This document shows positions 17,216-63,111 of a DNA stretch of 64,000 nt, piece by piece. The notes beneath the pieces are model-generated. The model was not told where the DNA came from and ran no database searches. It worked only from the letters and a program-made list of their open reading frames with translations. The first letter of the stretch is position 1. Each line of letters opens with the position of its first letter. The translations under genes and the position numbers were made by a program. The DNA lies in assembly GCA_964526915.1 (NCBI GenBank), contig CAZGMS010000072.1, positions 7,341 to 71,340 on the forward strand. Reading direction: 5' to 3'. The DNA is from an uncultured Nitrospirales bacterium. GTDB taxonomy: Bacteria; UBA10199; JADGCS01.

Positions 17216-17226
17216 GTATTATTATT

Positions 17227-18183: not shown

Positions 18184-18198
18184 TGGAGGTGCCCTTTA

Positions 18199-19089: not shown

Positions 19090-19129
19090 TTTTTCATCCC
19101 CCTAATGGTTCATCCATCTGTTTTCTTGT

Positions 19130-20005: not shown

Positions 20006-20020
20006 CCTTTTTAGTTCTGT

Positions 20021-20551: not shown

Positions 20552-20593
20552 GGCATATTAGGCATCTTGAAAATACAGATTAAAGCACGGCTA

Positions 20594-36966: not shown

Positions 36967-36968
36967 AG

Positions 36969-42419: not shown

Positions 42420-42430
42420 TTTCCCACGTT

Positions 42431-47159: not shown

Positions 47160-49046
47160 TTACTCGCTAACAGACCAGACCTTTTTCCACAAATAAAGAG
47201 AATACAAACGGCTTACCAAAGACCAATCCTTGATCTTGTTTTGCGTATATTTTTGATAATATGCATATATTTTTTTATGATTCAAAAAAGAAAACAAGCC
47301 ATTCAGATGAATATCATTAAACACACTATCAAAATTCTCTTTCAAACCCGTTTTTTGCCACAGAATTTCTGGCAATTCAAAACCAGTTTTATCGCTTCTA
47401 TTTAGAATACTCTCAGGCACCTTGCCTTGTGCTATGGTTCTCAATATTTTTTTGGAAACACCTTCATGAATTTTTTTGTCATCACCAAGGGAAAATGCTT
47501 TCTCCACCAGACGATAGTCCAAAAAAGGCAGGCGACTTTCCAAGGAAAATCGCATGGAGTTGCGATCTTCGTATCTCAAGTATTCTCTCAAGGCTGACAC
47601 CACAAGGTTGTTCCATTGCTGATTCTTTAATCTGCTGGTATATTTTTTTTGCGTCTTGACACTCTCATAATTCGTAACAAAAATATCATGCTTGTTTTTT
47701 GGTCTATAAATATCTGACAAAATCTTCGTGAAGACATTCGCACAAGTACGCAGGCAAGATAGATTTCTTGTCGTGCAGTAGGCACGCAGTTCTCTCACAA
47801 AACTCCCAAACTTTAACCTCAAAAGCAAGTCTGACAAGTAGGTATAATGATATTCCGTATAGCCCGTAAAAATTTCATCAGCACCCTGTCCATTCAACAA
47901 GACTTTTACATGACTGTTCTTTTTAATGTATTCATAAATCAGATATTGGGAATAAACAGCCAGGCCTCTCCACGGCTCTTCATGCACATACACCAGTTCA
48001 TTTAATTTTTCGATCAAACCTTCCGTTTGTGGATAAACAAAATGTTTTTCCAATTTGATGTTTCTTGTTTGAAACTCATCAATGTATTTTTTTTCACTAA
48101 AAGCCTCGTCGTCAAACACAACTGAAAATGTTTTAAATGCTCCAACATATTGTTCTGCATCAATCAGTCCCAAAATGGTGCTGGAATCAATGCCACCACT
48201 CAATAGTGAACCCACTTCCACATCTGACCGCAAACGCAATCGAATAGAATCTTTGAGAATGTTTTCTATTTCTAGTTGGGTGGCTTGAGGATGATCATGC
48301 ATTTTCCAATAGCTGTAAGTTGTTAATCCTGCTCTTGAAAACTCACAATATGTGCCTGGCTCAATTTGCAAAACATCCCTAAACATCGTCTGCTGAGTGT
48401 GATCCGAATAGCTGTACCTCAAATACTGACACACCATCTCACGATTGACATATAGTTTATCGAAAAACGACGATATAAACTTGATTTCACTTCCAAAGAT
48501 CAGATTATCATCAACAAAGGAATAATAAAGCGGCTTTATTCCAAATCTATCACGCGTAAGTGTGAGTTGATCTTTTTGGCTATCGTAAATAGCGGCCGCC
48601 CACATCCCGTTGAACCTGCAAAAAGCCTCCGTACCCCAACAATGAAAGGCCTTCAGGAACACCTCTGAATCAGCACTGGTGGTGAAACAATAACCTTGGG
48701 ATTTAAGCACTTCCCTGATTTCAATGTAGTTATATATCTCTCCATTATACACAAGACACAACCCTTCATAGCGATAAGGTTGGTGCCCCAAAGGAGTCAG
48801 ATCAATGATACTCAGCCTCCTGTGTCCCATAATGAGTCCGGACTTGTCTTTGTTAACAATGTGTTCATAACCAGCAAGTTCTTTGACGGTATCATCCCCT
48901 CTTAAGGCCTCAATAGTCTTATCATAGTTTTGATAAACAAATCCTTCATCATCAGGTCCCCTGTGTTTTAGTTTTAGGTGTGCCTGATAGAACCGTTTGG
49001 GATCAACTGTATTTTGATATGAAAAAAAACCAGATACGCCACACAT
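47160..49046 (-). CDS. Asparagine synthase (glutamine-hydrolysing)-family amidotransferase (AsnB/WbpS-like)
   Basis: 628 aa. N-terminal nucleophile MCGVSGFF and PP-loop LLSGGIDSS. Confidence 0.9.
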   Translation of the reverse strand: MCGVSGFFSYQNTVDPKRFYQAHLKLKHRGPDDEGFVYQNYDKTIEALRGDDTVKELAGYEHIVNKDKSGLIMGHRRLSIIDLTPLGHQPYRYEGLCLVYNGEIYNYIEIREVLKSQGYCFTTSADSEVFLKAFHCWGTEAFCRFNGMWAAAIYDSQKDQLTLTRDRFGIKPLYYSFVDDNLIFGSEIKFISSFFDKLYVNREMVCQYLRYSYSDHTQQTMFRDVLQIEPGTYCEFSRAGLTTYSYWKMHDHPQATQLEIENILKDSIRLRLRSDVEVGSLLSGGIDSSTILGLIDAEQYVGAFKTFSVVFDDEAFSEKKYIDEFQTRNIKLEKHFVYPQTEGLIEKLNELVYVHEEPWRGLAVYSQYLIYEYIKKNSHVKVLLNGQGADEIFTGYTEYHYTYLSDLLLRLKFGSFVRELRAYCTTRNLSCLRTCANVFTKILSDIYRPKNKHDIFVTNYESVKTQKKYTSRLKNQQWNNLVVSALREYLRYEDRNSMRFSLESRLPFLDYRLVEKAFSLGDDKKIHEGVSKKILRTIAQGKVPESILNRSDKTGFELPEILWQKTGLKENFDSVFNDIHLNGLFSFLNHKKIYAYYQKYTQNKIKDWSLVSRLYSLYLWKKVWSVSE

Positions 49047-49114
49047 AAATATTAACCGTCATTCCTTACCATAATGCATGTCATCGAAGAATTACTGTGC
49101 CGTTGTTACGCATC

Positions 49115-50425
49115 TTAGGCACAAAACAGACCCAGATTCACCATAAATATCAATAAGTACACAGAAAATACTGTCACTCTGTACCTACAACTCATATATT
49201 GTGCTGCTACGGATTGCATGATTAACGAATAAATAAAAAGTCCTGCGAAGCTTGCAAAGGCGGATCCAACAACACCATAGGGGAGTATCAAATACCAATT
49301 TAATAAAGCATTAACCCCAAAGGAAACAAAAGCTATCACAGGATAAATCCAAACTCTCTTATGATAACCCAATACAAGAGCAGGAATTTTATAAAAACCG
49401 CCCATCATAAATCCAGCCATAACAAATGGCATCACTGTTGCAGATTCAGAATATTTTTCATTTGAAATAAGTGCGACCAAAACAGGACTTAAAAATGAAA
49501 CAATAATTGTTATGACAATGAGCCCTGCATAATACAAGTAAGAAAATTTTTCTAATTCTGCCTTGGCTTTTACATAATCACTGATCATGTCATTAAATAC
49601 TTTTGGCAACATGGCCTGCGATACTGACTCATACACAATGGATAGACCTCTGCCGAGCATATATCCCAATGTGTAAATACCAACCGCTGTATTGCCGATG
49701 TAATGTTTCAGAAAAATTCTATCAAGGTACAGGAATGCAATGCCCTGTGTCATAGAAATCATCCCAGGCAACGACAACAAAAAAGTTTCCTTTGCCATCA
49801 ACCTGTTAAAAACCAATCTTATTTTAAATAAATTATTTTTTGCAAACTCTTTTAACAAAGAATAAATATTTACACCGTAACCAATGCCCTGCCCGCTTAT
49901 TCTGCCAAGGATACCTAAATTGAATACTGATATTAAAATAAATGATGTCGCATGATTAACAAGCGTTTGAAATATTGAATGCTTAAGAACAGATGTGGAC
50001 TTGTGTTCATTGTATAAAATTCTTGTAAAAAATGAAACATACACTGAGGCAATGCCAGTACCCAATGTCACCATATAAATTGTACGGGTTTTTATGGCTA
50101 TCCAATCAGAGATCAAGGGCATAAAAATCAATCCAATTATCAGTACCAATGCTGCTTGAAATGTGAGAAACCATAAAATCGTACTTAAATATTCATCGCG
50201 ATGCGTTTTTCTATAGTCAAAATAAAATCGGGTAGCACTGCTATCAAGATTCAACGATGCCAAGGTCTTGATGTACTCAAACATAACCAGGTACATCGCC
50301 AACACACCATAGTCGGCTGGTGTGAAAACGAACGTATAATATTTTGTCATGAGCACCGTGGCAACCGCCGCAATGAGTGATCCTGTAAAAAATTTTGGTG
50401 CGTGTTGAAAAACAACTTTGAACAT
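49115..50425 (-). CDS. wzx: Oligosaccharide flippase family protein (Wzx-like, MOP superfamily); flippase no. 2
   Basis: 436 aa and polytopic. N-terminus FTGSLIAAVATVLMTKYYTFVFTPADYGVLAMYL parallels Wzx no. 1. Confidence 0.7.
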   Translation of the reverse strand: MFKVVFQHAPKFFTGSLIAAVATVLMTKYYTFVFTPADYGVLAMYLVMFEYIKTLASLNLDSSATRFYFDYRKTHRDEYLSTILWFLTFQAALVLIIGLIFMPLISDWIAIKTRTIYMVTLGTGIASVYVSFFTRILYNEHKSTSVLKHSIFQTLVNHATSFILISVFNLGILGRISGQGIGYGVNIYSLLKEFAKNNLFKIRLVFNRLMAKETFLLSLPGMISMTQGIAFLYLDRIFLKHYIGNTAVGIYTLGYMLGRGLSIVYESVSQAMLPKVFNDMISDYVKAKAELEKFSYLYYAGLIVITIIVSFLSPVLVALISNEKYSESATVMPFVMAGFMMGGFYKIPALVLGYHKRVWIYPVIAFVSFGVNALLNWYLILPYGVVGSAFASFAGLFIYSLIMQSVAAQYMSCRYRVTVFSVYLLIFMVNLGLFCA

Positions 50426-50595
50426 TATTATTCTGAGATACCTTTATAGAATATCTTCGTGTCTTATTCCATCATAGACATATCCCTGATCGTCAATACT
50501 TAGAAATCCAAAATCCCAACATTCACTTCCTATAAATTTAAGAAATCATTTAAAAACCTTGTCTTTACCCTCTAAAATTTTTCACTAATAACTTT

Positions 50596-51675
50596 TTACT
50601 TGAAAGCCGTCGCTCGCACACCTCCAACACCCCAGGTTCTTATTGAACTAAATGCTGCTTCACTGGCCCATAATTCAATTTGTTGATGATTTGCCCCATT
50701 AACATATTGAGGCGTTATACAATCAAACGTATTGATAATGACATACTTCATCAGCAATTTCTTGTCGTGTGTACTTTCCCATAATTTACCATGGGGGTAA
50801 TCGCCAGCGTAGCCTTCCCTTGCATTAAAAAAGATATTCCTAGGATCAATTGGCTCAGTTGTTTTTCGTATTACTTTTGCCATAAAAGGCATTTTGAATT
50901 TGTAGAAAACCTTTTGTAAGCCATATTTCAAAGGAATAAAAACAGGTACAAACCAATTAATAAGTTTCCAGGATGTCTGTGGATGAATCCTTTGAATAAT
51001 CGGCAGAAACCAAGGTTTATAAACAGCAGCATAGGAGGTAAAAGCAATTTCACCATTCTTTTTGAGAAGTCGATACATTGTTTTCAAGGTATCCACGGGA
51101 CTTGGCGTGTGCTGCAACACCTGAAAAAGCCAAATCTTATCAAAAATTCCATTTTCGAAGATGGGTTTATTGATATCCCCCTGAACCACGTCAATGTTGG
51201 GCATCGTCAAAATATCTTCTGAGAAGGTATCGATTGCATTCGACATGTCTATTGATACCAAATGTGCCCCTGTCTTGATCAAATGCTCTGTACAACACCC
51301 TGTTCCTGGTCCCACTTCAAGAATCAACTGCCCTCGCAAATCTTTTGGCCATTCAAAACCAAAAGGACTATATCCATCTCTACCCTGCCCGTCTTGGCTG
51401 TACTTGCCATGTATAACATCATGGTAAAACGGAATGCCTGTATAACTGTCTAAAACAACTTGGCCTGTTTCCCGCCACAATTTTCCCCAGGAGTCAGAGT
51501 AATTGTAACCATCGATAAGCCTCGGGATATAATTGACAACGCGATACTCTGCCAAGCACAATGAGCAAAAAAGAATCGCAGAATATATTTCATCCTTTTT
51601 TTCGACACGTTCTTTGACGTTAAAATGACTGCCACACTTTGGACAGTGGATAAGATCGAGAACTCTTTCTTTCAT
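50596..51675 (-). CDS. Zinc-ribbon (Trm112-like) fused class I SAM methyltransferase
   Basis: 359 aa. CPKCGSHF...FCSLC four-Cys N-terminus, then ILEVGPGTGCCTEHL motif I. Confidence 0.7.
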   Translation of the reverse strand: MKERVLDLIHCPKCGSHFNVKERVEKKDEIYSAILFCSLCLAEYRVVNYIPRLIDGYNYSDSWGKLWRETGQVVLDSYTGIPFYHDVIHGKYSQDGQGRDGYSPFGFEWPKDLRGQLILEVGPGTGCCTEHLIKTGAHLVSIDMSNAIDTFSEDILTMPNIDVVQGDINKPIFENGIFDKIWLFQVLQHTPSPVDTLKTMYRLLKKNGEIAFTSYAAVYKPWFLPIIQRIHPQTSWKLINWFVPVFIPLKYGLQKVFYKFKMPFMAKVIRKTTEPIDPRNIFFNAREGYAGDYPHGKLWESTHDKKLLMKYVIINTFDCITPQYVNGANHQQIELWASEAAFSSIRTWGVGGVRATAFK

Positions 51676-51914
51676 AAACTCTCCCTACAATATTACATAC
51701 ATTTGTTTCGGTTGACTTATTAAAAAAACACGAGCGTCGACACACAACTATGAAATCACTTCGTCATTCTAAAGAAATTTCGCAAGACCCTCGTTTCTCA
51801 TAATATGAGAATTGTACTGGAATATTTCTGGGTGCTCCATAGAAAACATCATTTTTTGTTAATTTTTTATGAGACAACGTCACCCTGTTTAGAAGTTGTT
51901 TCTGTAACAATTAT

Positions 51915-53186
51915 TTAATGCAATTCATCTCTATAGTATTGGTCCAAAGTTTTTTGATATTCAATATACTGTCGGGTAAAAGCTTCGGGCTGATAATGGT
52001 CCCTCATTTGCGAACAACGCTTATTGTGCGAAAAAAAAGAAAAATGGTAAAAAAATCGGTTCACAAGCCCTCTGAAAAACAAATTCAGTGATACGCCGCA
52101 TTGCACAGATTTTTTTTCATCAAGATGCCGACTTATGTGTTCAGCAATAATTTTTGATGGGCTTTGATTTTGATTTCCAAAACAGGCTGTAATCAGCCTT
52201 TCTCTTTGCTCTCTCTTGGCTTCGAATTCTTTGATTGTTTTTGAAACAAACAACTCATCTAAATAATCCAGCAGTTGTTTGTTTGTTTGTGCAGAAATGG
52301 AAGACTCCCAAATTTCAACATATTCAGGATGATCCTGACATAGATGAATGGTTGTCTTGCCCTCCAACCACGCATCAACAGCCATTGTGGATTCATAAAC
52401 CAAAACAACATCTGCTAAGGCAATCAATTGATAAACGGGCATCTCATCATGAAGAATCAGCACATTATTGTATTGATCAAAATGATGAGAAATCTCCGTC
52501 TTTTCCTCATTTTCAGTAGCCGGATGGTATTTAAGAATCAAAAGTTTGTTGGGATACTGTTTTGCAACGGACTGCAAATAGTGTATGGTGGTTTCTTTTT
52601 GTTTGAGCAGGGCATCTCCCCGTACCCCTTGTTCATGTTGTCGTGCAACAATATCAAATGACCAACCTACATAAAAAATGATTCCATCGTATTGATCTCC
52701 AAGCAATTTACTACGATCAAACAAAACATTTTTAAAAATGTGGTATTTTTCGTGACCAGCACTACCCGAAACGCTCAGGATGTCCTTCAGATAAGGAAAC
52801 CGTTCCAAAGACCAGCGATACGAATCTTCATTCCATAGAAACCATTTGTCCACCGTAGGCTTTCGTTCACGATTATTACCCCAAAGATACAAGTCAGTTA
52901 ACTCTTTGCGAAATACTCCTTCTGCATGCAAGGCCACAGCATAAATACCGCGCTGTTGCGCATATTTTGTTACTTTGTAAATTGCATAGGCACCCGTACA
53001 ACAATTTGTTAGCAATACTTTCGGTTTCAACAAATCAATCGCTGTGTAATCAAAAATACTCCGCACTTCTACATGCAACTTGAATTTTTGACGTAACAAA
53101 TAGATGGTAGGAATCAGGGCTTGTACATCACGCCCGACCATCCCCCAGATCATCACCAACACATCACATTTGTTGATTTTTGCCAT
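51915..53186 (-). CDS. Hypothetical GT-B-like transferase (Capsule_synth/TagF-like C-terminal pattern)
   Basis: 423 aa. LLILKYHPATENE and DVVLVYESTMAVDAWLEGKTTI resemble the acceptor/donor motifs of KpsS/TagF-like GT-B enzymes. Weak, motif-only call. Confidence 0.35.
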   Translation of the reverse strand: MAKINKCDVLVMIWGMVGRDVQALIPTIYLLRQKFKLHVEVRSIFDYTAIDLLKPKVLLTNCCTGAYAIYKVTKYAQQRGIYAVALHAEGVFRKELTDLYLWGNNRERKPTVDKWFLWNEDSYRWSLERFPYLKDILSVSGSAGHEKYHIFKNVLFDRSKLLGDQYDGIIFYVGWSFDIVARQHEQGVRGDALLKQKETTIHYLQSVAKQYPNKLLILKYHPATENEEKTEISHHFDQYNNVLILHDEMPVYQLIALADVVLVYESTMAVDAWLEGKTTIHLCQDHPEYVEIWESSISAQTNKQLLDYLDELFVSKTIKEFEAKREQRERLITACFGNQNQSPSKIIAEHISRHLDEKKSVQCGVSLNLFFRGLVNRFFYHFSFFSHNKRCSQMRDHYQPEAFTRQYIEYQKTLDQYYRDELH

Positions 53187-53204
53187 CCGCTTTATACAAA
53201 ACGA

Positions 53205-54461
53205 TCACTTAGAATAGAAATGAGAAACCTTGAATAAGGCCTCTGCAATATCAGCAATGTCCTTTTCAGAATAGTTTTCGTGAATATTTAAATTGAAATG
53301 CGTATCAGTCACTTGTGTAATGTTATCAAATTTGAATACTGGTTGACGCTCACCATGATAATCTTTACACTGCCAAGGAAAACCACTTTTCCCAAACACA
53401 CTTTGATTTTTGAACCATGGATTTTCGCACGGAACATACCGATAAGTTTCTGTTACCGGCAACCCTTCGGCCTTGAGTGCCAAAGCAAATTCTTTTTTGG
53501 AACCATTTAGATTCTCAATGGGGACTTTCATGCGAAAAAACCAGAAGCTGGGTTCTACATCAACTTCAAATTGTCCAAAACACACAGAACCACAGCCTTG
53601 AAGTCTTTTATTAAGAGAATCTGCAAGCTGGCGTCTTTGCATGATGTGATAACTAAGTTTTTCCAGTTGAACAAACCCAATCGACGCCGGCAATTCACTT
53701 AAATTACAATTCAGACCAGCAACAGCATTGTGAACACCATCAATTTTACCTGTCTGATTAAAGGGTTTACCACGATCTGCAAATCGTTTTACTTTCCAAT
53801 ACAGTTCTTCATCTTTTGTATAGACGACCCCGCCCTGCCCCCCTGTGCAATGAAGCTTTGAAAACATTGTAGAAAATATTGCAATATCACCAAACGTCCC
53901 AACCTTTTGCCCTTGATACAAAGCACCATGAGATTGTGAACAATCTTCAATAACGTATAATCCATGTTTGTTAGCCACAGCCATCACAGGCTCCATATTC
54001 ACTGGTTCACCACCAATGTGTGCAACAATAATAGCCTTTACCCGCGGTGTGATCACACGCTCAATTTCTTCTGCGCACGTATTGTACGAATAAGTTGTGC
54101 TGTCTGCCATGATGGGGACACATCCTGCAAATAACACTGGCATCACTCCACCAGCATCAGTGATGGGTGGAACAATCACTTCGGATAACGCATCAAGTTC
54201 CAACGCTCCCAAAGCAACAAACAACGCATTTGTCCCTGAATTTACCCCATCGGCAAAGCCTCCACCCATCCACTCTGCAAAGGCTTTCTCGTAACGTTGC
54301 TCCCATTTCCCATTATAGCCAAATGCATCGCCCGATGTGATGGCTTCATCCAACACCTTAAGAACGACTTGTTTTTCCTTTTCAGTCATCAGATTCCTTT
54401 TGGGGAACGGCATTTTGCGGACAGGCTCACCACCATGAACAGCTAGTTTCATAATACTCAT
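53205..54461 (-). CDS. DegT/DnrJ/EryC1/StrS-family aminotransferase
   Basis: 418 aa. NSGTNALFVALGAL, VIEDCSQSHGALYQGQKVGTFG and FSKLHCTGGQGG. ATGA overlap with the upstream radical SAM gene. Confidence 0.85.
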   Translation of the reverse strand: MSIMKLAVHGGEPVRKMPFPKRNLMTEKEKQVVLKVLDEAITSGDAFGYNGKWEQRYEKAFAEWMGGGFADGVNSGTNALFVALGALELDALSEVIVPPITDAGGVMPVLFAGCVPIMADSTTYSYNTCAEEIERVITPRVKAIIVAHIGGEPVNMEPVMAVANKHGLYVIEDCSQSHGALYQGQKVGTFGDIAIFSTMFSKLHCTGGQGGVVYTKDEELYWKVKRFADRGKPFNQTGKIDGVHNAVAGLNCNLSELPASIGFVQLEKLSYHIMQRRQLADSLNKRLQGCGSVCFGQFEVDVEPSFWFFRMKVPIENLNGSKKEFALALKAEGLPVTETYRYVPCENPWFKNQSVFGKSGFPWQCKDYHGERQPVFKFDNITQVTDTHFNLNIHENYSEKDIADIAEALFKVSHFYSK

Positions 54462-55393
54462 ATTGATTTCTTTGAGTTGAAGTTATGTAGAACACTTTTT
54501 ATTTTCCAAAAAAATGGTACTTTTGGAAGGTTGCCATACCCAACATAATCACATACCCGACATAAATCGCTACAATTTCGATTTTGTCGAGACAGTTCTC
54601 TTCTCATTTTTTGAAACTTTGTCCCAAACCAGACTTCAAACAATGAAGCCTTGTTAAGATCTCCCATTTCATTCATATTATAAAAGTCATTGATACAAGA
54701 ACAAACCATTCCGCTAGGTTTAATATACATTATCTCATACACTTGATCACAGGGTGCTTGGCAGACCTCTTTATAAAATTGCTTTACATTCCCAGCGCGA
54801 CTCGTCCACGTTTCCTGATAGGTTCTATTGATATGTGTAATTTTCTTTACCAAACTATCATCCAATTGGGATAACATATTCAAGTTTCGCTCACAGGCCT
54901 TGTCATCATATGAATTTAAATATATATGATTCAAACCATCATGAAACAACTGAGAAACTCTGTGTGTTGTTAATAAATCACCATTTGTTGTAATAAATAT
55001 CCAAGCCCTGGGAAGTTTTTTTCGGGCATATTTTAAAAATTCATTAAATCGTTTATCGGTTAATGGCTCATTAATCTCATATAAGCTCAAAATCCCCGAA
55101 TATGAAATTGAAGCCAATTCATTAATAATACGTTTAAATAACTTCTCATTGATATTCTGCTTGACTGGCGACCTTTCCAGCCCATAATGACAAAAAGAAC
55201 ACTTTCGTGTGCACATATAATTGGTCTGAATTTTAATGTGCTTAAAAAGATCTTTGTCGGCTAATCCTTGTTTGCGCCTAAAAGACTGATAGGGATTCCG
55301 AATATTCCTAATATACCAATCTCTCAAAAAGACTTTCGTCCTGATACGTAAAGGAATATTATTTTTCCAATCATCACTCATAATAAGAAACAT
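54458..55393 (-). CDS. Radical SAM enzyme with Cys-rich SPASM/twitch-like C-terminus
   Basis: 311 aa. CX3CX2C in NYMCTRKCSFCHYG. C-terminal Cys cluster CQAPCDQ...VCSCIND...NCSDLCRVCDY. Confidence 0.8.
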   Translation of the reverse strand: MFLIMSDDWKNNIPLRIRTKVFLRDWYIRNIRNPYQSFRRKQGLADKDLFKHIKIQTNYMCTRKCSFCHYGLERSPVKQNINEKLFKRIINELASISYSGILSLYEINEPLTDKRFNEFLKYARKKLPRAWIFITTNGDLLTTHRVSQLFHDGLNHIYLNSYDDKACERNLNMLSQLDDSLVKKITHINRTYQETWTSRAGNVKQFYKEVCQAPCDQVYEIMYIKPSGMVCSCINDFYNMNEMGDLNKASLFEVWFGTKFQKMRRELSRQNRNCSDLCRVCDYVGYGNLPKVPFFWKIKSVLHNFNSKKSI

Positions 55394-55394
55394 T

Positions 55395-56645
55395 CTATCT
55401 CTTGATTACACTCGAAACCCAAAAATCATTGCCAAAATGATAATTATTGTTTTGTAAAAAAGAAACTTTTTGTGGAATATATTCGCTGGCTATCATAATA
55501 TACGGTTTAGAAGGAAACTCACTTCTATCCCGCAGTTGTTCTTGCAAATAACAACTTTTATTTAACAGTGTACATTTTTTTTCGGTCCGCTCACACTCTA
55601 TAAATCCAGAAACCTGAATACCACTTTTAACTAAGCGATCATAGAGAACAGTTGCCATTTTTTCTGTGCCCCATATCAACAAAGGTCTATCGGGATCATA
55701 AAAATCCATTTTAACATCCAAAATATCCATAATTTTCGGATAGGGTCGGTTGTTTATGAGATAGGGAATAGCCTGTTGCATACATTCTTTACAAAACGAC
55801 TGACATTTTTTTGCCTTCTTCATTTCCTCATAAGAGTAATCATAAAGATCACCAAAGGCATAACCCGACATCTCCTTTGTCATCATGCAACAGGTGAGCA
55901 GTCTGCTTTTCTCATCGATAAACAAAACCTCATGATAAGGACATGTGTATGATGGTGGCACTTGTTTTTTGACTTGCTCGGGATAATAGAATATCAGGTC
56001 CTGTGACAACTTTTTCAATTCATCATAGGGCATTTCATTTGCCAGATATGCCTTCAACCTCCTCAAATCGGCTATACCAGCGTATGTAGGAGAAACACAC
56101 AAATTCTGTTCCTTGGCAAAGGCCAGCATATCTGGTATCTCATCAATATTAAATTGATAGACATGATATCTGATTTCTGCTTTTCCACGAAAACCACAAC
56201 GCCGATAATTATCCAGCATCTGAACAATATTATCTTTTATTTTATGAAAACTGAATCCATGTATTCTGTCATAGGAGTTTTGAGAAAAACCTGACATGGA
56301 AAAAACCAAAGCCCTTAAATTTCTTAAAGCCTGTTCATTTTCAAAATACAGTGGGCGTGAGGCATTAGTGCTCACAATGTATTCGTGACCTTCATCATTT
56401 AAAAATGCTGCTATCTCTCCAAATTGTGGATTCAACATTGGTTCACCCCAATTGTACAAGAAAAAGTAGGCATCAGCAGTGATGACATTATTTTTTTTTA
56501 GATAAAAAACAGCTTTTTTAAATTCATCACAAGTAATATACTGCTTTGATGTATTGCTATTATCATGAGATTCAATCCCTGTCGCACACCAGGGGCAGAG
56601 GGCATTACATTTACCTGATATTTCAAAAACAACATGATTATACAT
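55395..56645 (-). CDS. Radical SAM enzyme (possible auxiliary-cluster domain)
   Basis: 416 aa. CX3CX2C in EISGKCNALCPWCATG. Later Cys groups YTCPYHE...LLTCCMM...KKCQSFCKECMQ. Confidence 0.75.
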   Translation of the reverse strand: MYNHVVFEISGKCNALCPWCATGIESHDNSNTSKQYITCDEFKKAVFYLKKNNVITADAYFFLYNWGEPMLNPQFGEIAAFLNDEGHEYIVSTNASRPLYFENEQALRNLRALVFSMSGFSQNSYDRIHGFSFHKIKDNIVQMLDNYRRCGFRGKAEIRYHVYQFNIDEIPDMLAFAKEQNLCVSPTYAGIADLRRLKAYLANEMPYDELKKLSQDLIFYYPEQVKKQVPPSYTCPYHEVLFIDEKSRLLTCCMMTKEMSGYAFGDLYDYSYEEMKKAKKCQSFCKECMQQAIPYLINNRPYPKIMDILDVKMDFYDPDRPLLIWGTEKMATVLYDRLVKSGIQVSGFIECERTEKKCTLLNKSCYLQEQLRDRSEFPSKPYIMIASEYIPQKVSFLQNNNYHFGNDFWVSSVIKR

Positions 56646-56667
56646 GGTAGCTTCCTCCTATGATGAT

Positions 56668-57489
56668 TTATCTCACCTTTCTCATCCGGGCCATGGCACA
56701 TCCATTTGACTGAGACAAGTTACTGGCAGATACATTTGATAATTTTTCAAATCCCGAAACTTCTTCCCAAAATTCGTGCTCGGTAAATTGGAAATATCTT
56801 TCTTCAACCAATTCAAAATCCTTATGCCTGATGATGTTCATCCAACTCTCTTGCTCATACTCCCACTGGACACAATAGTAGCCAAGACTATCCTGTATGA
56901 CAACAGGTCCGCCCTTACCCATAGGAACCGTGATAAATAATTCTCCCTGCTTTTTAAGGATTTGACTGGTCTTATCCATAACAAGTCTATCTGTATGGGG
57001 CGCGCGATCTGTACACACGTCTTGAATATTTTTCTTTCTGACAAATACGCTTTTGTCATCACCCTGGGACGAGACATCATAACCAATGTGTTCTATCACA
57101 GATATACAGGTAACCACGTCAAAATTATTTTTTGGCAATTGATAATATCGATAATCACCACAATATTGATTCAGAGCCATCACTGAGGGCCACCACTCTT
57201 GCGGATATCTGGATTTAACGGCATCAAGTTTCACAATATCTATGAAGTGCAAATCAAGCCCCAATATTTCTTTTGTAGCCAACAAAGTCCCCATATAGTC
57301 CAAACTGGATAACGCTGTGCCAATATCCAGCAACCGACAGCCCTGAAAATCTACCAGATGTGAGGTTAACCAAGGGACTTCTATGCATCTGGCTGAATGT
57401 GACTGTCTGATGTCTGTTTTCCCCCAGCACTGCTCTCGTCGTATGATGGCCACGCAATAATCTAATATTCGCTTTGTCGTTGTGTCCAC
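56668..57489 (-). CDS. Methyltransferase-fold protein (class I SAM-MTase-like)
   Basis: 273 aa. RLLDIGTALSSLDY (motif I-like) and DVVTCISVIEHIG (post-II-like). Confidence 0.5.
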   Translation of the reverse strand: MDTTTKRILDYCVAIIRREQCWGKTDIRQSHSARCIEVPWLTSHLVDFQGCRLLDIGTALSSLDYMGTLLATKEILGLDLHFIDIVKLDAVKSRYPQEWWPSVMALNQYCGDYRYYQLPKNNFDVVTCISVIEHIGYDVSSQGDDKSVFVRKKNIQDVCTDRAPHTDRLVMDKTSQILKKQGELFITVPMGKGGPVVIQDSLGYYCVQWEYEQESWMNIIRHKDFELVEERYFQFTEHEFWEEVSGFEKLSNVSASNLSQSNGCAMARMRKVR

Positions 57490-57518
57490 AGTTTACCTCT
57501 CCACTCTGATAGGGTTAA

Positions 57519-59147
57519 TCATTGAGAATAGCTTTCCATATCCACATGAAGTGTTTCCAAATAATAACGCCATTGAAACGAACCCTTTTCCAAGACCTTC
57601 TTCGCCCTTTGTACCAATTGTTGACAATCTTCTGTCAGGTTTCGAGTTTTCATGATTTGAGCAAGAGCCAATAGAGCAAATACATGGTCTGGCACCATAT
57701 CCAATACATATCGAAAATCGCGCTCTGCCTGTGCCAAAGATTCTTTTGTGTTCTGTTTCAGATTTCGATTGTTGATAAAATTATTTTTGAGGTTGGCCAT
57801 GTAACTTAAGTCACCAAGTTGCTTACTCGAATAATCAATGTGATCAAACTCCTGGGCAAAATAAAACTCTCCCGCCCCCTCGCTAAAACCATCTATCAGC
57901 CGCTGTTCAATACAGTCATCAAAGAGAGCTGCCCCGGGAAGAGGCTTAAAACAATAAAATCCCTTCCAGTCCGTATCGAGTGTTTCCGCAAAAGCCAGGG
58001 TGTTCTTAACACTCTTGAGATCCTCGAAGGGAAAACCGGTAATGAAAAAGGCATTTATAAATGCTGACCCGTTTTTCCTGATCAGTTTGACCACATTTAG
58101 TGTTTCTTCAACCGTGAGAGGCTTACGAATCTTCTTCAGTATTTCATTGGATCCAGACTCCGCCGCCAAATTAAAAAACGCAATCTTGCTGGCATACATT
58201 TTTTTTATTATCCGCTCATCATTGAGTGTGCGAATGGACAAGCCACCACTGGACAGCCAACTGACATCCAGTGTAGCAAGGGCATCCAGCAACTGTTCAA
58301 ACCATTTTTTGTCGACACTGATATTCTCATCATTAAAGATGATAATATTTACGTCGTAATTGTCTTTGAGGTATTGAATTTCATATACGATATTTTCTAC
58401 GTGACGTTTGCGCCATCTTCTACTCCAGAAACTGGGAGATGTACAAAAGGTGCATGCATTGGGACAGCCACGAGAAGCTGTAATCGATGCAGGTCTCCAC
58501 TCATGCTTATCCTTCAAACGGTACAACAAATTGCGACCTTCCCGAAAATAATATTTGAAATGAGTGTCTTCCCAGGGCAGTCGTTTGACATCACAATATC
58601 CGTCCCAGAATTTCTTACGTGGATTACGAATCACCTGATTCCCTTCGCGATGAACAATGCCTTCTATGTCACTCATCTGCCCGTTTGAATTCATAGCATC
58701 AATGAGATCAGACAAACCCAATTCACCTTCCGACAAGATGATATAGTCAACCAACTCATCTTCCATACATTTGGCTGTGAGATGATGAGGATAATGCCCG
58801 CCAAAAACTAGGACGATTTTCGGGTTAATCTTTTTTATCAACGAGGCCATTTTGTGAAAAACAGGTATGCCCTGATAATACAATGTGGCCATGGCTATCA
58901 TATCGGGCTGATATTCTAAAATGTACCTCTTCAGGATATCCTCAAGGGAGTCTCCTGTTAAGAATTTCATTTCAATATTGAGATCGACAAACAGGACACC
59001 AACATCCTGACGTTTCTTGATATAATCATACACGTACAGCAAGCCCAGTGGAGGCTCAAAATAGGCATATCCTGATTGTCTTCCCAATTTTAATACGGAA
59101 GGATCCGGCGGATTCAGAAACAAGATTTTATTGATAATTTTATTCAT
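57519..59147 (-). CDS. B12-binding (class B) radical SAM enzyme with a helical-repeat C-terminal tail
   Basis: 542 aa. N-terminal cobalamin-binding-type domain (ILFLNPP...LGLLYVYDYIKK) and cluster motif TASRGCPNACTFCTSP. The C-terminal ~90 aa look TPR-like (LAQAERDFRYVLDMVPDHVFALLALAQIM). Confidence 0.8.
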   Translation of the reverse strand: MNKIINKILFLNPPDPSVLKLGRQSGYAYFEPPLGLLYVYDYIKKRQDVGVLFVDLNIEMKFLTGDSLEDILKRYILEYQPDMIAMATLYYQGIPVFHKMASLIKKINPKIVLVFGGHYPHHLTAKCMEDELVDYIILSEGELGLSDLIDAMNSNGQMSDIEGIVHREGNQVIRNPRKKFWDGYCDVKRLPWEDTHFKYYFREGRNLLYRLKDKHEWRPASITASRGCPNACTFCTSPSFWSRRWRKRHVENIVYEIQYLKDNYDVNIIIFNDENISVDKKWFEQLLDALATLDVSWLSSGGLSIRTLNDERIIKKMYASKIAFFNLAAESGSNEILKKIRKPLTVEETLNVVKLIRKNGSAFINAFFITGFPFEDLKSVKNTLAFAETLDTDWKGFYCFKPLPGAALFDDCIEQRLIDGFSEGAGEFYFAQEFDHIDYSSKQLGDLSYMANLKNNFINNRNLKQNTKESLAQAERDFRYVLDMVPDHVFALLALAQIMKTRNLTEDCQQLVQRAKKVLEKGSFQWRYYLETLHVDMESYSQ

Positions 59148-59187
59148 CTTTTAACCACAATATTTATCAGTTATCCTGACAAGGAAA

Positions 59188-60594
59188 TCAGACAACCTGT
59201 GTTTTGAGATAATTTTTTAGCAAGACAATTTTCGACAATCTTTTTTCATACTCAAAACTGCGCACCAATAAATGCAAGTTCTTCAAGAAGAGAAATATTT
59301 TGTTGGGTGGCAATTTTAACAGCCAGAAAATCATTCTCTCAAAATAGGGATATTTAATGAGATAAAAGAACAATTTATCCAGATTAATAAATATTTTTTT
59401 CTCTTTAGACATGAGAAGTGAATCATTAAAATTCAATAAATGAATTTCTTCCAGTGTAGGTATCTTTTTGATATAACCCTTTTCAAAAGCGTAATGAGTC
59501 ACTCTGAGGCCAGGATAAAAAACCAGTACATTGGATGAATAGGAATCAGCCTTAATTTCACGGCACAGTCTTATGGTGTCCATGGCTTCTTCAAAGGTTT
59601 CACCTGGCCAGCCAAAAATGATATCAATACCAATCCGAATACCCTGCTCTTGAATCAGGCGACAGGCCCTAATAATCTGTTCGTTTGTGGTGAGGCGACC
59701 GGCGACTTCATGTCGCACACGATCATTTCCCGATTGAATACCAAAAGTGATCCGGTCGCATCCTGCTTTTTTTAAAAGCACGGCGGTTTCCGCATCAATA
59801 TTTTCAACCCGCAAATTACATAGAAACCCTGGCAGTCTGGCTTGCGCATAATCACGTAAAAACTCCTTAAACCACCTCTTATCCGCGTTGAGTGTTCCAT
59901 CCTGAAAATGAACCCATTCTATTCCATAAGTATTTTTTACGTATTTTATTTCCTCCAGCGTTTCCTGAATGGAACGCAATCGCCAGTATTTCTTTTTGAA
60001 ATGACGTGATAATTCTTTGTTGTAACAAAATGTACAACCATAGGGACAACCACGAGAGGCAATGAAGATTTTCACGGGACTTTCTTGAAGAACTTTATAT
60101 TTATAATACACGTCCCGATTGGGGAAACAATTTTCACTCACATCCACAAGATCACATTCTTCATTCTTATGTGCCTGGGCATGCGCATCTAAATAACACA
60201 GTCCCTTTATGGAATCTAACCCTTCACCCCTTTGGTGTTTTAAAATAAATTCTGGTAAGGATTTTTCTCCATCACCTCTAAAAACATAATCCACTGCTGG
60301 CCTGCTGATAATTTCTGGATATATCAGGGCAAAGGGCCCGCCCACCAACGTTACAGACTCTGGTAATACGGTTTTGATTTTCTTCAAATATTCAAAGGCA
60401 AAATTCTCTTCGCCAATAAATAAACTGTAGACAACATAATCGGGTTTGTAGGCTACAATTTTGACATAGAAATCTTTTTCTAGGTCATGAATAAAAACTT
60501 CACAGTGAATGTCTTTTTCCTTTAAACTCCCTGCCAAAAAATGAACACTGAGTTTTTCGTAGGCTTCTTTTTGTACGAAAGCGACTTTTACCAT
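59188..60594 (-). CDS. B12-binding (class B) radical SAM enzyme
   Basis: 468 aa. N-terminal B12-type domain (VAFVQKE...DYVVYSLF) and cluster motif IASRGCPYGCTFCYNKE. Confidence 0.8.
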   Translation of the reverse strand: MVKVAFVQKEAYEKLSVHFLAGSLKEKDIHCEVFIHDLEKDFYVKIVAYKPDYVVYSLFIGEENFAFEYLKKIKTVLPESVTLVGGPFALIYPEIISRPAVDYVFRGDGEKSLPEFILKHQRGEGLDSIKGLCYLDAHAQAHKNEECDLVDVSENCFPNRDVYYKYKVLQESPVKIFIASRGCPYGCTFCYNKELSRHFKKKYWRLRSIQETLEEIKYVKNTYGIEWVHFQDGTLNADKRWFKEFLRDYAQARLPGFLCNLRVENIDAETAVLLKKAGCDRITFGIQSGNDRVRHEVAGRLTTNEQIIRACRLIQEQGIRIGIDIIFGWPGETFEEAMDTIRLCREIKADSYSSNVLVFYPGLRVTHYAFEKGYIKKIPTLEEIHLLNFNDSLLMSKEKKIFINLDKLFFYLIKYPYFERMIFWLLKLPPNKIFLFLKNLHLLVRSFEYEKRLSKIVLLKNYLKTQVV

Positions 60595-60605
60595 AGTAAC
60601 ATCAG

Positions 60606-61508
60606 TTATCTTGTTTGATGTGGTACCGGTCTGTAAGCATCCAGTTTACGTGTCCCCCAGAGACTTGATACCACCAAACCACATAACCGTACCCAACCAT
60701 GAAGCACAAAATAAGGCACATATTTTACTTGATATTTCAATCCACAATAGACAGCTCTTTTGATAGGGTATGTATAAATCAAATGTTGTATCACGGCCCA
60801 GCGTCTCTCAGGATGTGCCATGATGAACTTGTAGTCCCCCGCCCCATAAGAAAGCCAACGACTAACCAATTCACCAAAATTATCTATGTATTTACGGTAT
60901 GTTTTACCTGTCCCCACGACAAAATGGCCGCCCTGTCTTTTCAGTCGATAGGCCAGATCAGAATCTTCAGAAGCGGAACCATAACGAACATCATTGTTTT
61001 TCATGGCTTCTATGAGGGCCCGTTTTTGATATAAAGCGGGCCGACCAACCATTTGAATATTTTGTTCTTTCTGCTTCTTATCCAAATCACGAATCACCTG
61101 CATGCTCATCCAAAAAGCCTGTTCCCAGTATTTTGATTTTTTTCCTGTTTTTTCCGATAAATCACAATGCCTGGCCTGTGTCGCCACGGCACCTGATCTT
61201 TCCAAATCCAGCATCAGGTCACGCAAACACCACCGATCCAACTGATCATCAGCATCAACAATGGCAACGTAAGAAGCCTCAGAAGAGGCGGCATAAACTC
61301 CTGTATTTCGTTGTATAACCAAACCTTTCTCTGATTCAATGACCTTAATAGCAGTAAACTCTCTGGCCAATAAGGTGGTGCGATCGACTGAACCACCATC
61401 GACTACAATGATCTCTAATGGGTCATTATCCAAACAAGACTGAATACAAGCAGAAATATTCTTTTCTTCGTTAACAGTGCGAATAATAACCGTAATCGGT
61501 AGAGACAT
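60606..61508 (-). CDS. Glycosyltransferase family 2
   Basis: 300 aa. ITVIIRTVNEEKNI, IIVVDGGSVDRT and AIVDADDQL (DXD). Confidence 0.8.
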   Translation of the reverse strand: MSLPITVIIRTVNEEKNISACIQSCLDNDPLEIIVVDGGSVDRTTLLAREFTAIKVIESEKGLVIQRNTGVYAASSEASYVAIVDADDQLDRWCLRDLMLDLERSGAVATQARHCDLSEKTGKKSKYWEQAFWMSMQVIRDLDKKQKEQNIQMVGRPALYQKRALIEAMKNNDVRYGSASEDSDLAYRLKRQGGHFVVGTGKTYRKYIDNFGELVSRWLSYGAGDYKFIMAHPERRWAVIQHLIYTYPIKRAVYCGLKYQVKYVPYFVLHGWVRLCGLVVSSLWGTRKLDAYRPVPHQTR

Positions 61509-62044
61509 TATGAATGGCTCCCGTGATCAGACAATATCGATAATATCCGCGAATCCCACCACCTGCCATCATAAAAATAATTATCTCTGAGCAACCCATC
61601 CAGTTTAAATCCCAACTGAGTATACAATTCATATTTCTTCACATCGAACTCGTATATTTCTGTCCAGATTTTGTGTAGATTTAACTCACCAAAGGCATAC
61701 TGGAACAGAACTTGGCAAGCATCTTCTGCAAAACCGGCATCATCAATATAGGAATTTTGCCAGCCAATGTAGAGCGATAAATCGGCATGACGATGCACCC
61801 AATTGATGTAACACAAACCACACACTCCAACCAGTTCATTGGTCTCAAGATCACGGACAGCAAACATCAAGGTCCGATCATCTGCCAACACTTTTTCGCG
61901 GTACCATTTATCCTGACTTTCGCGGTCCAACTCACGGTATTCCCTAAAATGCTTTCGAAACTCTTCGTTATTGCGCCACAGACGCATGGTCTCTAGATCC
62001 TCTTTTTCAACGGTGGTCAACGCCACTTTTTTTCCCTTTAACAT
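61508..62044 (-). CDS. GNAT N-acetyltransferase (PseH/RimL-like)
   Basis: 178 aa. DLETMRLWRNNEEFRKHF N-terminus and an acetyl-CoA region typical of PseH-like amino-sugar acetyltransferases. Adjacent to the NeuB-like gene. Confidence 0.7.
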   Translation of the reverse strand: MLKGKKVALTTVEKEDLETMRLWRNNEEFRKHFREYRELDRESQDKWYREKVLADDRTLMFAVRDLETNELVGVCGLCYINWVHRHADLSLYIGWQNSYIDDAGFAEDACQVLFQYAFGELNLHKIWTEIYEFDVKKYELYTQLGFKLDGLLRDNYFYDGRWWDSRILSILSDHGSHS

Positions 62045-63111
62045 AACTCAATATCTCCCACCATGACGGCCTCATCCTCCGCGACATCCCTTTTCAGCAC
62101 TTTGCCAATAAGTGTGTGGACGGCAAACGGTTGAACCCCTCCCTGCGTAAATGGTCGCAGTGGAAACAAATTTTCTTTCGTCAACACATGTCCTTTTTTC
62201 AGATCGCGCACATATCTTAGACCCCGTCTTTGCAAACAAACAGTATCATTCTCATTGGCCTCAACCCTTTTAACACCATCACCCAAGGCCAAATAGACTT
62301 CTTGAGCACGACAAACCATTTCCCTCCACGATTTGGGATTCATGGCAAACCTGTGATCGGGCCCTTCGCGCGAGTTATCATCAGTAAAATGTTTTTCAAA
62401 AACCACAGCTCCCAAAGCGACAGCACCCAACACAGTCGCGTGACCATGAGTGTGATCCGAAAGCCCCAACAAGACATTGGGATATCTTTTTTTGTAATCT
62501 TTCAAAACATTCAAATTGATGCATTTGAAATTTTCAGGACTTGCTGTATAATTTGTATTGCACTGCATGAGCACAATATCCTGAGTGTGCTTAAATAAAC
62601 AATGCATGGCTCTTTCCACATCTTCAATTGTGGAAGCCCCTGTCGCCAGCATCACAGGTTTACCTTTTTTGGCTATATACTCAATCATTTCCAACCAGGT
62701 TATATCTCCAGAACCGATCTTATAGACTGAAACATAGGGATCCACATGATCGACCGTTTCAAAGTCATAGGGACTTGTAAAATATTCTATCCCCACTTCA
62801 TCGCATTTATGTTTTAATTTTGCTGTCCATTCCCGGGGTAGACTCGCGTCTTGATACACCTCATAAACTGGCTTTTTCCATTTTGCTTGATGAGATAATT
62901 GACCACCCAATGACTCAAAACCATTCCGACTCACAATTTTTCTCGCAACAAAATTTTGAAATTTGGCCGCATCAGCCCCAGCTTCTTTGGCCAATTCAAT
63001 CAATTTGAGTGCCCGTTGCAAATCACCATCATGGTTCGCCGCAATATCGGCAATAAAATACAGATTTTCTCCTTCTCCAATTTTTCTTTTGCCTACAGTG
63101 ATCGTTTTCAT
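62038..63111 (-). CDS. Nonulosonic acid synthase (NeuB/PseI/LegI family) with C-terminal SAF domain
   Basis: 357 aa. YFIADIAANHDGDL, GADAAKFQNF and VFEKHFTDD. Which nonulosonate is made cannot be told from sequence by eye. Confidence 0.85.
   Translation of the reverse strand: MKTITVGKRKIGEGENLYFIADIAANHDGDLQRALKLIELAKEAGADAAKFQNFVARKIVSRNGFESLGGQLSHQAKWKKPVYEVYQDASLPREWTAKLKHKCDEVGIEYFTSPYDFETVDHVDPYVSVYKIGSGDITWLEMIEYIAKKGKPVMLATGASTIEDVERAMHCLFKHTQDIVLMQCNTNYTASPENFKCINLNVLKDYKKRYPNVLLGLSDHTHGHATVLGAVALGAVVFEKHFTDDNSREGPDHRFAMNPKSWREMVCRAQEVYLALGDGVKRVEANENDTVCLQRRGLRYVRDLKKGHVLTKENLFPLRPFTQGGVQPFAVHTLIGKVLKRDVAEDEAVMVGDIELC

Follow-up and report, generated by a model that had tools for sequence, protein, structure and literature searches.

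The stretch analysed here ("the window") comprises 64,000 nucleotides (nt) of contig CAZGMS010000072.1 from an uncultured Nitrospirales bacterium, and encodes on its minus strand a BtrN-family twitch radical S-adenosylmethionine (rSAM) enzyme of 311 amino acids (aa) (54458..55393), followed by a long-form DegT/DnrJ/EryC1/StrS pyridoxal phosphate (PLP) aminotransferase of 418 aa (53205..54461), both with ATG starts. The two open reading frames (ORFs) meet in an ATGA junction (54458..54461, minus strand; TCAT on the plus strand), in which the TGA stop of the rSAM gene shares 4 nt with the ATG start of the DegT gene. The sequence thus confirms the ORF pair and its 4-nt overlap as described in an earlier note on this DNA, which did not give the minus-strand orientation of both genes. 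In Pfam, the 418-aa protein matches DegT_DnrJ_EryC1 (E 7e-68), and the 311-aa protein matches SPASM (35.9 bits) and barely passes the cut-off for Radical_SAM (29.6 bits; cut-off 29.5). We infer that the pair probably converts a sugar hydroxyl to an amino group, by an oxidise-then-aminate route not yet described for surface glycans.

The overlap is a weak sign of the translational coupling that the earlier note read from it. In this single-orientation window, exact 4-nt overlaps occur at 13 of the 55 junctions between long minus-strand ORFs, and 40 of the same 55 junctions have a spacing of 25 nt or less; the overlap is also not kept in homologous loci (see below). With such overlaps common in the window, that between the rSAM and DegT genes is attributed to operon packing and not to a special link. 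The DegT gene has a second in-frame ATG 9 nt downstream (MSIM-KLAVHGG), use of which would leave a 5-nt spacer and no overlap; the N-termini of 28 DegT homologs (consensus xxxxKLA..GG, 411-426 aa) agree with the first ATG. No strong Shine-Dalgarno sequence was found ahead of the ATG of either gene, and a scan of 49000..64000 for promoters and terminators gave counts not above those of shuffled sequence, so that the scan is uninformative on operon boundaries.

By both sequence and fold, the top match of the 311-aa protein in the PDB is BtrN. In a phmmer search against all PDB sequences, BtrN (4m7t, 4m7s) ranked first (E 7e-24, residues 47-285), with the next match at E 0.004; a profile built from 42 family members retrieved BtrN at E 3e-57 (197 bits) and no other protein better than 6e-7. 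Pairwise identity between the two proteins is ~25-26% (BLASTP E 9e-28). In the AlphaFold model of the 311-aa protein, built on the alignment of these 42 members (mean predicted local distance difference test (pLDDT) 93.6), the core comprises five strands and four helices, and the first Foldseek match of the model in the PDB is the BtrN structure 4m7t, which contains S-adenosylmethionine (SAM) and substrate (template modelling (TM) score 0.89 normalised to BtrN, root-mean-square deviation 2.5 Å, E 4e-21). The earlier note had proposed comparison with anSME and DesII as well as with BtrN; both of these reached a TM of at most 0.5, as did SuiB, CteB, SpeY, SkfB, EpeE, PqqE, and MoaA. Relative to BtrN, the predicted structure has extra helices at the N-terminus (residues 15-41) and at the C-terminus (residues 294-308). 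Goldman et al. 2013 are said to describe the BtrN fold as abridged, consisting of a partial barrel and a twitch hairpin, and to place Arg152 of BtrN next to the substrate hydroxyl.

The residues expected of such an enzyme are retained. The motif for the rSAM cluster (C61-x3-C65-x2-C68) aligns with C16/C20/C23 of BtrN; CX3CX2C is invariant in alignments of 27 and 42 sequences, and is present in 143 of 146 sequences of a wider family set (the 144 top divergent family representatives, the window protein, and BtrN). C215/C233/C278/C281 correspond to the BtrN auxiliary-cluster ligands C169/C187/C232/C235 and are kept in 141 sequences of this set; all seven cluster cysteines are retained together in 139, and R199, which aligns with Arg152 of BtrN, is kept in 135. 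The remaining C-terminal cysteines (C211, C231, and C274) are not conserved among homologs, which leaves ligands for one auxiliary cluster only, as in a twitch domain and not in a two-cluster SPASM domain. The alignments support a twitch domain with a single four-cysteine auxiliary [4Fe-4S] site. Thus, in the label "SPASM/twitch-like" used in the earlier note, the twitch part stands and the full two-cluster SPASM part does not, and the likeness to BtrN proposed there is borne out by the PDB ranking together with the seven cysteines and the arginine. BtrN itself converts 2-deoxy-scyllo-inosamine by oxidation into a ketone, for which its low-potential auxiliary cluster, ligated by four cysteines, has been proposed as the acceptor of the second electron (PMC9012708, PMC10337720).

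A full-SPASM peptide maturase (of the anSME, PqqE, SuiB, or sactisynthase kind) was considered for the 311-aa protein and rejected, based on the four conserved C-terminal cysteines only and on TM scores of 0.4-0.5 for anSME, SuiB, and SkfB. The protein stays well short of the cut-off of every curated NCBIfam model; the maturase models among them reach at most 48 bits against cut-offs of 250-650. It thus stands apart from the SPASM enzymes that modify peptides, and its auxiliary ligands are kept, so that neither of the outcomes that the earlier note gave as refuting for the rSAM protein was observed.

Judged by profile searches, the window protein is a member of a large, coherent, and essentially uncharacterised BtrN-like family. 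A word-indexed search gave 49 homologs (best 60% identity), nearly all on metagenomic contigs; an exhaustive profile search of 1.84 billion cluster representatives gave 1,819 at E<=1e-30 and 15,547 at E<=1e-10. More than 150 cluster representatives score at least as high as BtrN against the same profile, and the window protein's own subclade (above ~290 bits) is small. A scan of a genome collection with a broader alignment found 10 loci, all in metagenome-assembled genomes (MAGs), and the same kind of scan with the close-homolog alignment found no loci; a metagenome scan found 21 loci, many on short contigs. The hosts of the homologs are MAGs of Desulfovibrionaceae, Nitrospirae, Omnitrophota, Candidate Phyla Radiation (CPR) bacteria, and Woesearchaeota; these are largely anaerobic lineages, which fits an oxygen-sensitive enzyme. 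Fusion proteins that join a BtrN-like domain to GT1, to GT2 (1,018 aa in total), to PMT_2, to DUF6625, or to a Rossmann domain of the CoA_binding type occur as well (P0213, P0227, P0255, P0264, and P0287), which ties the wider family to glycan synthesis. In addition, the N-terminal part of TIGR04321 ("spiro-SPASM protein") is matched by a cytidylyltransferase linked to the operon described below (L044 60..821), and its rSAM part by the BtrN-like protein, so that a cytidylyltransferase-rSAM fusion family exists in other bacteria.

BtrN is the only characterised member of the family identified in the PDB, NCBIfam, and literature searches, among at least 1,819 clusters. With an identity to BtrN of only ~25%, function could have diverged within so large a family, and the three further rSAM genes alongside suggest that the chemistry of the operon is unusual; both would be compatible with a different radical reaction (C-H epimerisation, C-C rearrangement, or ring contraction), with the aminotransferase, or the oxidoreductase that takes its place in other loci, acting before the rSAM enzyme. 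We regard this as quite improbable: past the seven cluster ligands there is no further conserved cysteine or obvious hydrogen-atom donor, the arginine aligned with Arg152 of BtrN is conserved, and a fully ligated auxiliary cluster suits electron transfer and not substrate binding (PMC9012708).

As judged by its residues, the 418-aa DegT protein is catalytically intact. The PLP lysine K202, which lies in the motif FSTMFSK, is kept without exception in 29 homologs, as are D173 and Q176. In the DegT family, an aspartate binds the pyridine nitrogen, and a histidine in place of the Schiff-base lysine would indicate a dehydrase; the conserved triad thus argues for a competent aminotransferase and not a Lys-to-His dehydrase. 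Identification as PseC or LegC was rejected, with scores far under the equivalog cut-offs in NCBIfam (PseC, 149 bits, cut-off 423.5; LegC family, 152 bits, cut-off 420). The best sequence matches in the PDB are Pcryo_0638 (7l7x, top), the metagenomic sugar transaminase 7b0m, and GDP-perosamine synthase. The protein has a conserved C-terminal extension (~residues 345-418), and alignments that include it over the full length were obtained with Fic25, KdnA, and the 2-deoxy-scyllo-inosose aminotransferases RbmB and BtrR; KdnA (5k8b) is matched in the same way by the DegT family profile (E 4e-49). The structure model (pLDDT 87.9) superposes with a TM of 0.75-0.86 on many DegT structures, and over its whole length better on Fic25 (TMq 0.85), RbmB (0.81), and KdnA (0.78) than on the ~365-aa nucleoside diphosphate (NDP)-sugar enzymes (~0.75). 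Fic25, RbmB, and KdnA act on substrates that carry no nucleotide handle, and the better superposition on them is a soft hint, from a predicted model, that the DegT substrate may not be nucleotide-linked either.

The gene that partners the BtrN-like gene was followed across 45 loci, in which BLAST comparison with the proteins of the window, and with a small number of reference neighbours, served to label the ORFs; close homologs of the rSAM protein are 48-61% identical to it, and the deeper clades ~40%. A DegT gene of the same type (58-69% identical) lies directly after the rSAM gene in the window, L017 (30-nt gap), L018 (~145 nt, with the DegT split), L022 (~90 nt), and L045 (83 nt), and a methyltransferase gene stands between the two in L026 and on the P0003 contig. 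The same slot is occupied by a GFO/IDH/MocA-family oxidoreductase (hereafter GFO; 324-335 aa) in L001/L002/L003, L004, L020, L024, L025, and L028, usually with a 4-8-nt overlap or a ~10-nt gap. In the clades of ~40% identity, GFO is again found downstream of the rSAM gene (L010, L032, and L039), or upstream of it, either directly (L009, L011, and L033) or with a small ORF between (L029). The DegT and GFO partner types were never found adjoining one and the same rSAM gene among the loci examined; in L045, a GFO gene further along is of a different type (20% identical). Within the close clade, rSAM lineages with a DegT partner and those with a GFO partner interleave in a neighbour-joining tree. 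A distinct ~428-aa DegT is encoded inside a cytidylyltransferase-GFO module in L004 and L045.

Four high-scoring family representatives (P0177, P0178, P0184, and P0187; 557-623 aa) are fusions of an N-terminal rSAM domain with a C-terminal GFO domain, including a 621-aa ORF for P0187 (L030 9950..11815); the domain order is the gene order of the loci with GFO downstream of rSAM. No DegT-rSAM fusion was found among 20 long family members examined. The fusions, together with the tight and deep-rooted adjacency, indicate that the enzyme in this slot works with the rSAM enzyme. Since an aminotransferase and an NAD(P)-dependent oxidoreductase are interchangeable there, one obvious substrate class is common to both, namely a carbonyl; formation of a carbonyl from a secondary alcohol is what is expected of a BtrN-type enzyme, which fits with interchangeable carbonyl-using partners. 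The GFO partner of L001 gave generic matches only in the PDB, fitting neither a reductase nor an oxidase specifically.

The pair belongs to a minus-strand operon that, read 5' to 3', begins with genes for an RmlD-like reductase (63108..63986), a NeuB-family nonulosonic acid synthase (62038..63111), a PseH-like GNAT (61508..62044), and a GT2 (60606..61508). These are followed by two B12-binding rSAM enzymes (59188..60594 and 57519..59147), a methyltransferase-like protein of 273 aa that has weak Pfam matches only and is conserved in related cassettes (56668..57489), and a second, unrelated rSAM enzyme of 416 aa with a Cys-rich C-terminal region (55395..56645), the gene for which stops 1 nt short of the BtrN-like gene's start. 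Downstream of DegT, at a distance of 18 nt, lies a BFO_1060-family glycosyltransferase gene (51915..53186; NF046086, 224.8 bits, cut-off 200), and then genes for a methyltransferase, a flippase, and an asparagine-synthase-type amidotransferase. Exact-match contigs add, upstream past the window edge, a KdsB-like cytidylyltransferase and a class-III aminotransferase (L044 60..2143), the latter resembling glutamate-semialdehyde aminomutase. BFO_1060 is the Tannerella forsythia 92A2 ortholog of Tanf_01245 and TFUB4_00887, which have been implicated by experiment as transferases of pseudaminic/legionaminic-acid (Pse/Leg) derivatives (PMC5420450).

With NeuB, the PseH-like GNAT, and GT2 upstream, the BFO_1060-family transferase downstream, and the cytidylyltransferase, the gene pair stands in what looks like a nonulosonic-acid context. 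The synthase, the cytidylyltransferase, and the transferase of such a pathway are all represented by gene type, two of them under the curated cut-offs or off-type: the NeuB homolog scores 274 against the NeuB cut-off of 399.65 and 245 against the PseI cut-off of 340, and the cytidylyltransferase is nearer KdsB than PseF. The GNAT scores 63 against the PseH cut-off of 93. As NeuB falls under both cut-offs, the sugar made by the operon is nonulosonic-acid-like and not canonical, and by its gene content the operon looks like a non-canonical nonulosonic-acid-type route. A NeuB gene is present in most of the longer close loci (L001, L004 as a 92-aa fragment, L007, L017, L018, L019, and L045), in most of which genes for a GT2 of ~290 aa and for B12-type rSAM enzymes also recur; two B12-rSAM genes and the GT2 gene accompany the BtrN-like gene in L001, L004, L017, L018, and L045, and also in L020, where NeuB was not detected. 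Homologs of the 416-aa rSAM were found in L007 and L019 only. This protein was also considered as a second BtrN-like enzyme and rejected, with only the N-terminal cluster-motif region in common (E 3e-4) and DesII as its best PDB match (E 0.03). More distant members of the BtrN-like family adjoin Wzm/Wzt transporters, flippases, or glycosyltransferases.

It is exceedingly improbable that the pair makes an aminocyclitol (2-deoxystreptamine-like) for attachment to a glycan, and we rejected this reading. The closest characterised rSAM homolog is the cyclitol dehydrogenase BtrN, and the DegT protein aligns well with BtrR and RbmB (E 1e-45, TMq 0.81), whereas BtrR is not its best match, neither the window (56 long ORFs) nor the related loci were found to encode a cyclitol-forming enzyme (2-deoxy-scyllo-inosose synthase, inositol-phosphate synthase, or other), and the conserved neighbours are NeuB, the cytidylyltransferase, and glycosyltransferases.

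Our preferred reading is that the BtrN-like rSAM enzyme forms a ketone on a nonulosonic-acid-type sugar or a precursor of it, and that this ketone is transaminated by the DegT enzyme here and reduced by GFO in the sister loci; we put the chances of this at about even. That the rSAM reaction is a dehydrogenation, which of the two steps comes first, and what the substrate is and where it is modified, we infer as follows. The rSAM enzyme would cleave SAM reductively at the C61/C65/C68 cluster, with abstraction of the carbinol hydrogen of a secondary alcohol. The second electron would pass to the auxiliary [4Fe-4S] cluster (C215/C233/C278/C281), R199 would help to deprotonate the hydroxyl, and the product would be a ketone. 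The substrate would not be a cyclitol; it would be an intermediate of the operon's nonulosonic-acid-type sugar, most likely the nine-carbon acid or a hexose precursor. The DegT enzyme would then transaminate the ketone, so that, with neither NAD(P) nor oxygen involved, an amino group takes the place of a hydroxyl. In the sister loci, GFO would reduce the same kind of ketone to an epimer, or to a deoxy sugar after dehydration. The rSAM enzyme would thus act as a ketone-forming hub, with the outcome set by the downstream gene.

The frequency of GFO as partner also bears on how the ketone would arise. It could be formed by radical dehydration of a 1,2-diol, as by AprD4, or by a DesII-like elimination, after which GFO would yield a deoxy sugar and DegT an amino-deoxy sugar. 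AprD4 itself is a diol dehydratase from another branch of the rSAM enzymes, with no known twitch domain. An NAD(P)H-dependent reductase working after an rSAM enzyme is an established arrangement, by which AprD4/AprD3 deoxygenate C3' (PMC5461906), and the commonest and sometimes fused partner of the BtrN-like enzymes, an NAD(P) oxidoreductase, is more obvious after a dehydratase than after a dehydrogenase. Nevertheless, we hold this origin of the ketone to be improbable, as the protein has the fold and the cluster ligands of BtrN, which is a dehydrogenase that removes two electrons and carries a four-cysteine auxiliary cluster (PMC9012708), DesII is a poor match to the model, and the proteins matched by the AprD4 model of NCBIfam were the two B12-type rSAM neighbours and not the 311-aa protein.

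Beyond the distance to BtrN, several observations weigh against a ketone passed from the rSAM enzyme to DegT. The overlap of the two genes is found in the window alone, and homologous pairs either have a gap of 30 to 145 nt or enclose a methyltransferase gene. Adjacency, which the earlier note had proposed to follow across homologous loci along with the overlap, is kept by only about half of the close homologs; the rest lack the window's DegT type. GFO, an NAD(P) oxidoreductase, is the more frequent and older partner in the slot, and such an ancestral pairing suits a dehydratase plus reductase, as in AprD4/AprD3, just as well as oxidation followed by reduction. A class-III aminotransferase is encoded in every related locus examined, which provides a capacity for amination without the DegT gene, and the window holds alternative sources of a ketone, in an alcohol dehydrogenase (ADH)-GFO fusion (34813..37020) and in short-chain dehydrogenase/reductase (SDR) dehydratases. 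The DegT family (>1,700 homologs at E<=1e-30, many from Planctomycetota and Lentisphaerota) is far larger than the rSAM subclade and includes loci without an rSAM gene, so that DegT does not depend on the rSAM enzyme. The contexts of two sampled DegT homologs (L041 = P0056 and L042 = P0107) look catabolic, with LacI, amidohydrolases, GFO, glycoside hydrolases, and no rSAM gene.

Some of these points are also those expected if the two enzymes had separate jobs, with DegT aminating a keto sugar supplied by an NAD(P)-dependent enzyme (an SDR 4,6-dehydratase, a UDP-sugar dehydrogenase, or a GFO-type oxidase) and the rSAM enzyme modifying another position or another intermediate: the overlap is of a generic kind, DegT genes of this family are mostly without an rSAM gene and typically near GFO genes, and PseB-like dehydratases and UDP-glucose-dehydrogenase-like genes are present in related loci. 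We nonetheless regard separate jobs as unlikely. DegT and GFO alternate in the identical slot 3' of the rSAM gene, never together, and GFO is fused to the rSAM domain in some organisms, which argues that the occupant of the slot acts on the substrate or the product of the rSAM enzyme. Neighbour joining of the DegT family places the members linked to rSAM genes in one basal grade, which is paraphyletic. Moreover, each conventional dehydratase in the window has a nearer DegT gene: the PglF-like dehydratase (1442..3328) that at 4592..5833, and RmlB (31267..32340) that at 27600..28766.

The window as a whole is one surface-polysaccharide region, with two flippases, Wzz, initiating transferases, many glycosyltransferases, RmlA/RmlB, and a PglDEF-like set. 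A block of organic-acid type (13513..21736) encodes an ATP-grasp protein, a thiamine pyrophosphate (TPP)-dependent enzyme, PrpD/MmgE, an aldo-keto reductase, the alpha and beta parts of a class-I fumarase, a TIM-barrel C-C bond lyase, and one further protein; this block may provide an unusual acyl or carboxy substituent. At 33203..37020, the 735-aa fusion of a zinc-type ADH with GFO/IDH/MocA mentioned above adjoins a heparinase II/III-like protein. At 39099..43795 are encoded a DegT-like protein of 362 aa whose match to the Pfam model is confined to the N-terminal half of that model, a FemAB-like acyltransferase, and a DUF7033 protein that resembles the VimE deacetylase (145 bits, cut-off 440).

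The types of enzyme and the chemistry proposed for the rSAM-DegT pair are known; the pathway setting and the interchangeable partner are new. Our literature search found no paper linking BtrN-like or any other rSAM enzymes to nonulosonic acid pathways, and none on a triamino nonulosonic acid. The characterised rSAM alcohol dehydrogenases of small-molecule sugars or cyclitols that our searches returned, BtrN and SpeY, both belong to antibiotic pathways, and a clear relative of BtrN is now placed in a surface operon of nonulosonic-acid type, beside the transferase for that sugar. With the direct precedent of butirosin for its chemistry, the pair is a good lead and not a surprise. The alternation of partners and the GFO fusions amount to a testable rule by which gene content would predict sugar structure, that is, an amine with DegT and an epimer or deoxy sugar with GFO. 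If the preferred reading is true, a route of amination independent of oxygen and NAD would be added to bacterial glycan biosynthesis, and new sialic-acid-like sugars would be indicated in uncultured anaerobes. A more specific proposal, which we consider possible but doubtful, is that the product of the operon would be a nonulosonic acid not described so far, with a hydroxyl of the ring or side chain (e.g., at C4, C7, or C8) replaced by an extra amino group, late in the pathway and anaerobically, by the BtrN-type rSAM and DegT enzymes, with the rSAM family as a partner-switched hub. In that event, with the two B12 enzymes and the fourth rSAM enzyme, the cassette would be a radical-SAM tailoring pathway for sialic-acid-like sugars in anaerobes.

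Several characterised systems resemble the pair in part. SpeY (twitch) and anSME (SPASM) are two-electron rSAM dehydrogenases of alcohols or thiols that have auxiliary clusters, of which anSME has two clusters and acts on a protein. Both (SpeY, 7wzv; anSME, 4k36) are much more distant from the 311-aa protein than BtrN (TM 0.4-0.5, 11-14% identity), and in the PDB search with the family profile SpeY fell outside significance (E 0.028) and anSME was not among the matches listed. In the WbpB/WbpE pair and its kin, an NAD-dependent GFO/IDH/MocA oxidant precedes a DegT enzyme, giving 3-keto and then 3-amino UDP-sugars. This is also oxidation of a sugar hydroxyl followed by DegT amination, and both 7l7x and WbpE are among the matches of the window DegT; however, GFO and DegT work together there, whereas here they replace each other beside the rSAM gene. 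In AprD4/AprD3 of apramycin and tobramycin biosynthesis, a ketone made by an rSAM enzyme is reduced by a dedicated NAD(P)H-dependent partner (PMC5461906), which parallels the rSAM-GFO pairs and fusions, although it is the neighbouring B12-type rSAM proteins and not the 311-aa protein that resemble AprD4.

KdnB/KdnA, which form Kdo8N for the lipopolysaccharide of Shewanella, oxidise and then transaminate an ulosonic acid for a surface glycan. KdnB, the Kdo 8-oxidase, is of the iron-type alcohol dehydrogenase/oxidase family (PMC5125639); it is thus not an rSAM enzyme, and its target is a primary alcohol, on C8 of an acid with eight carbons. In the butirosin pathway of Bacillus circulans, our comparison is with BtrN, the twitch rSAM dehydrogenase of 2-deoxy-scyllo-inosamine, and the DegT-family BtrS/BtrR that follows. 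The window pair shares with these the fold (TM 0.89), CX3CX2C, the four auxiliary cysteines, Arg152, an adjacent DegT gene, and the proposed passage from alcohol to ketone to amine without NAD or oxygen. It differs in the identity of ~25%, in the extra N- and C-terminal helices, and in its setting, which is a surface-glycan operon of nonulosonic-acid type without cyclitol genes and not an antibiotic cluster; in addition, several sugar aminotransferases are at least as close to the window DegT as BtrR is, and in relatives of the rSAM gene the partner is often GFO. Thus, BtrN with BtrS/BtrR is the closest known system in mechanism and fold, and KdnB/KdnA is the closest in pathway logic on a similar class of substrate.

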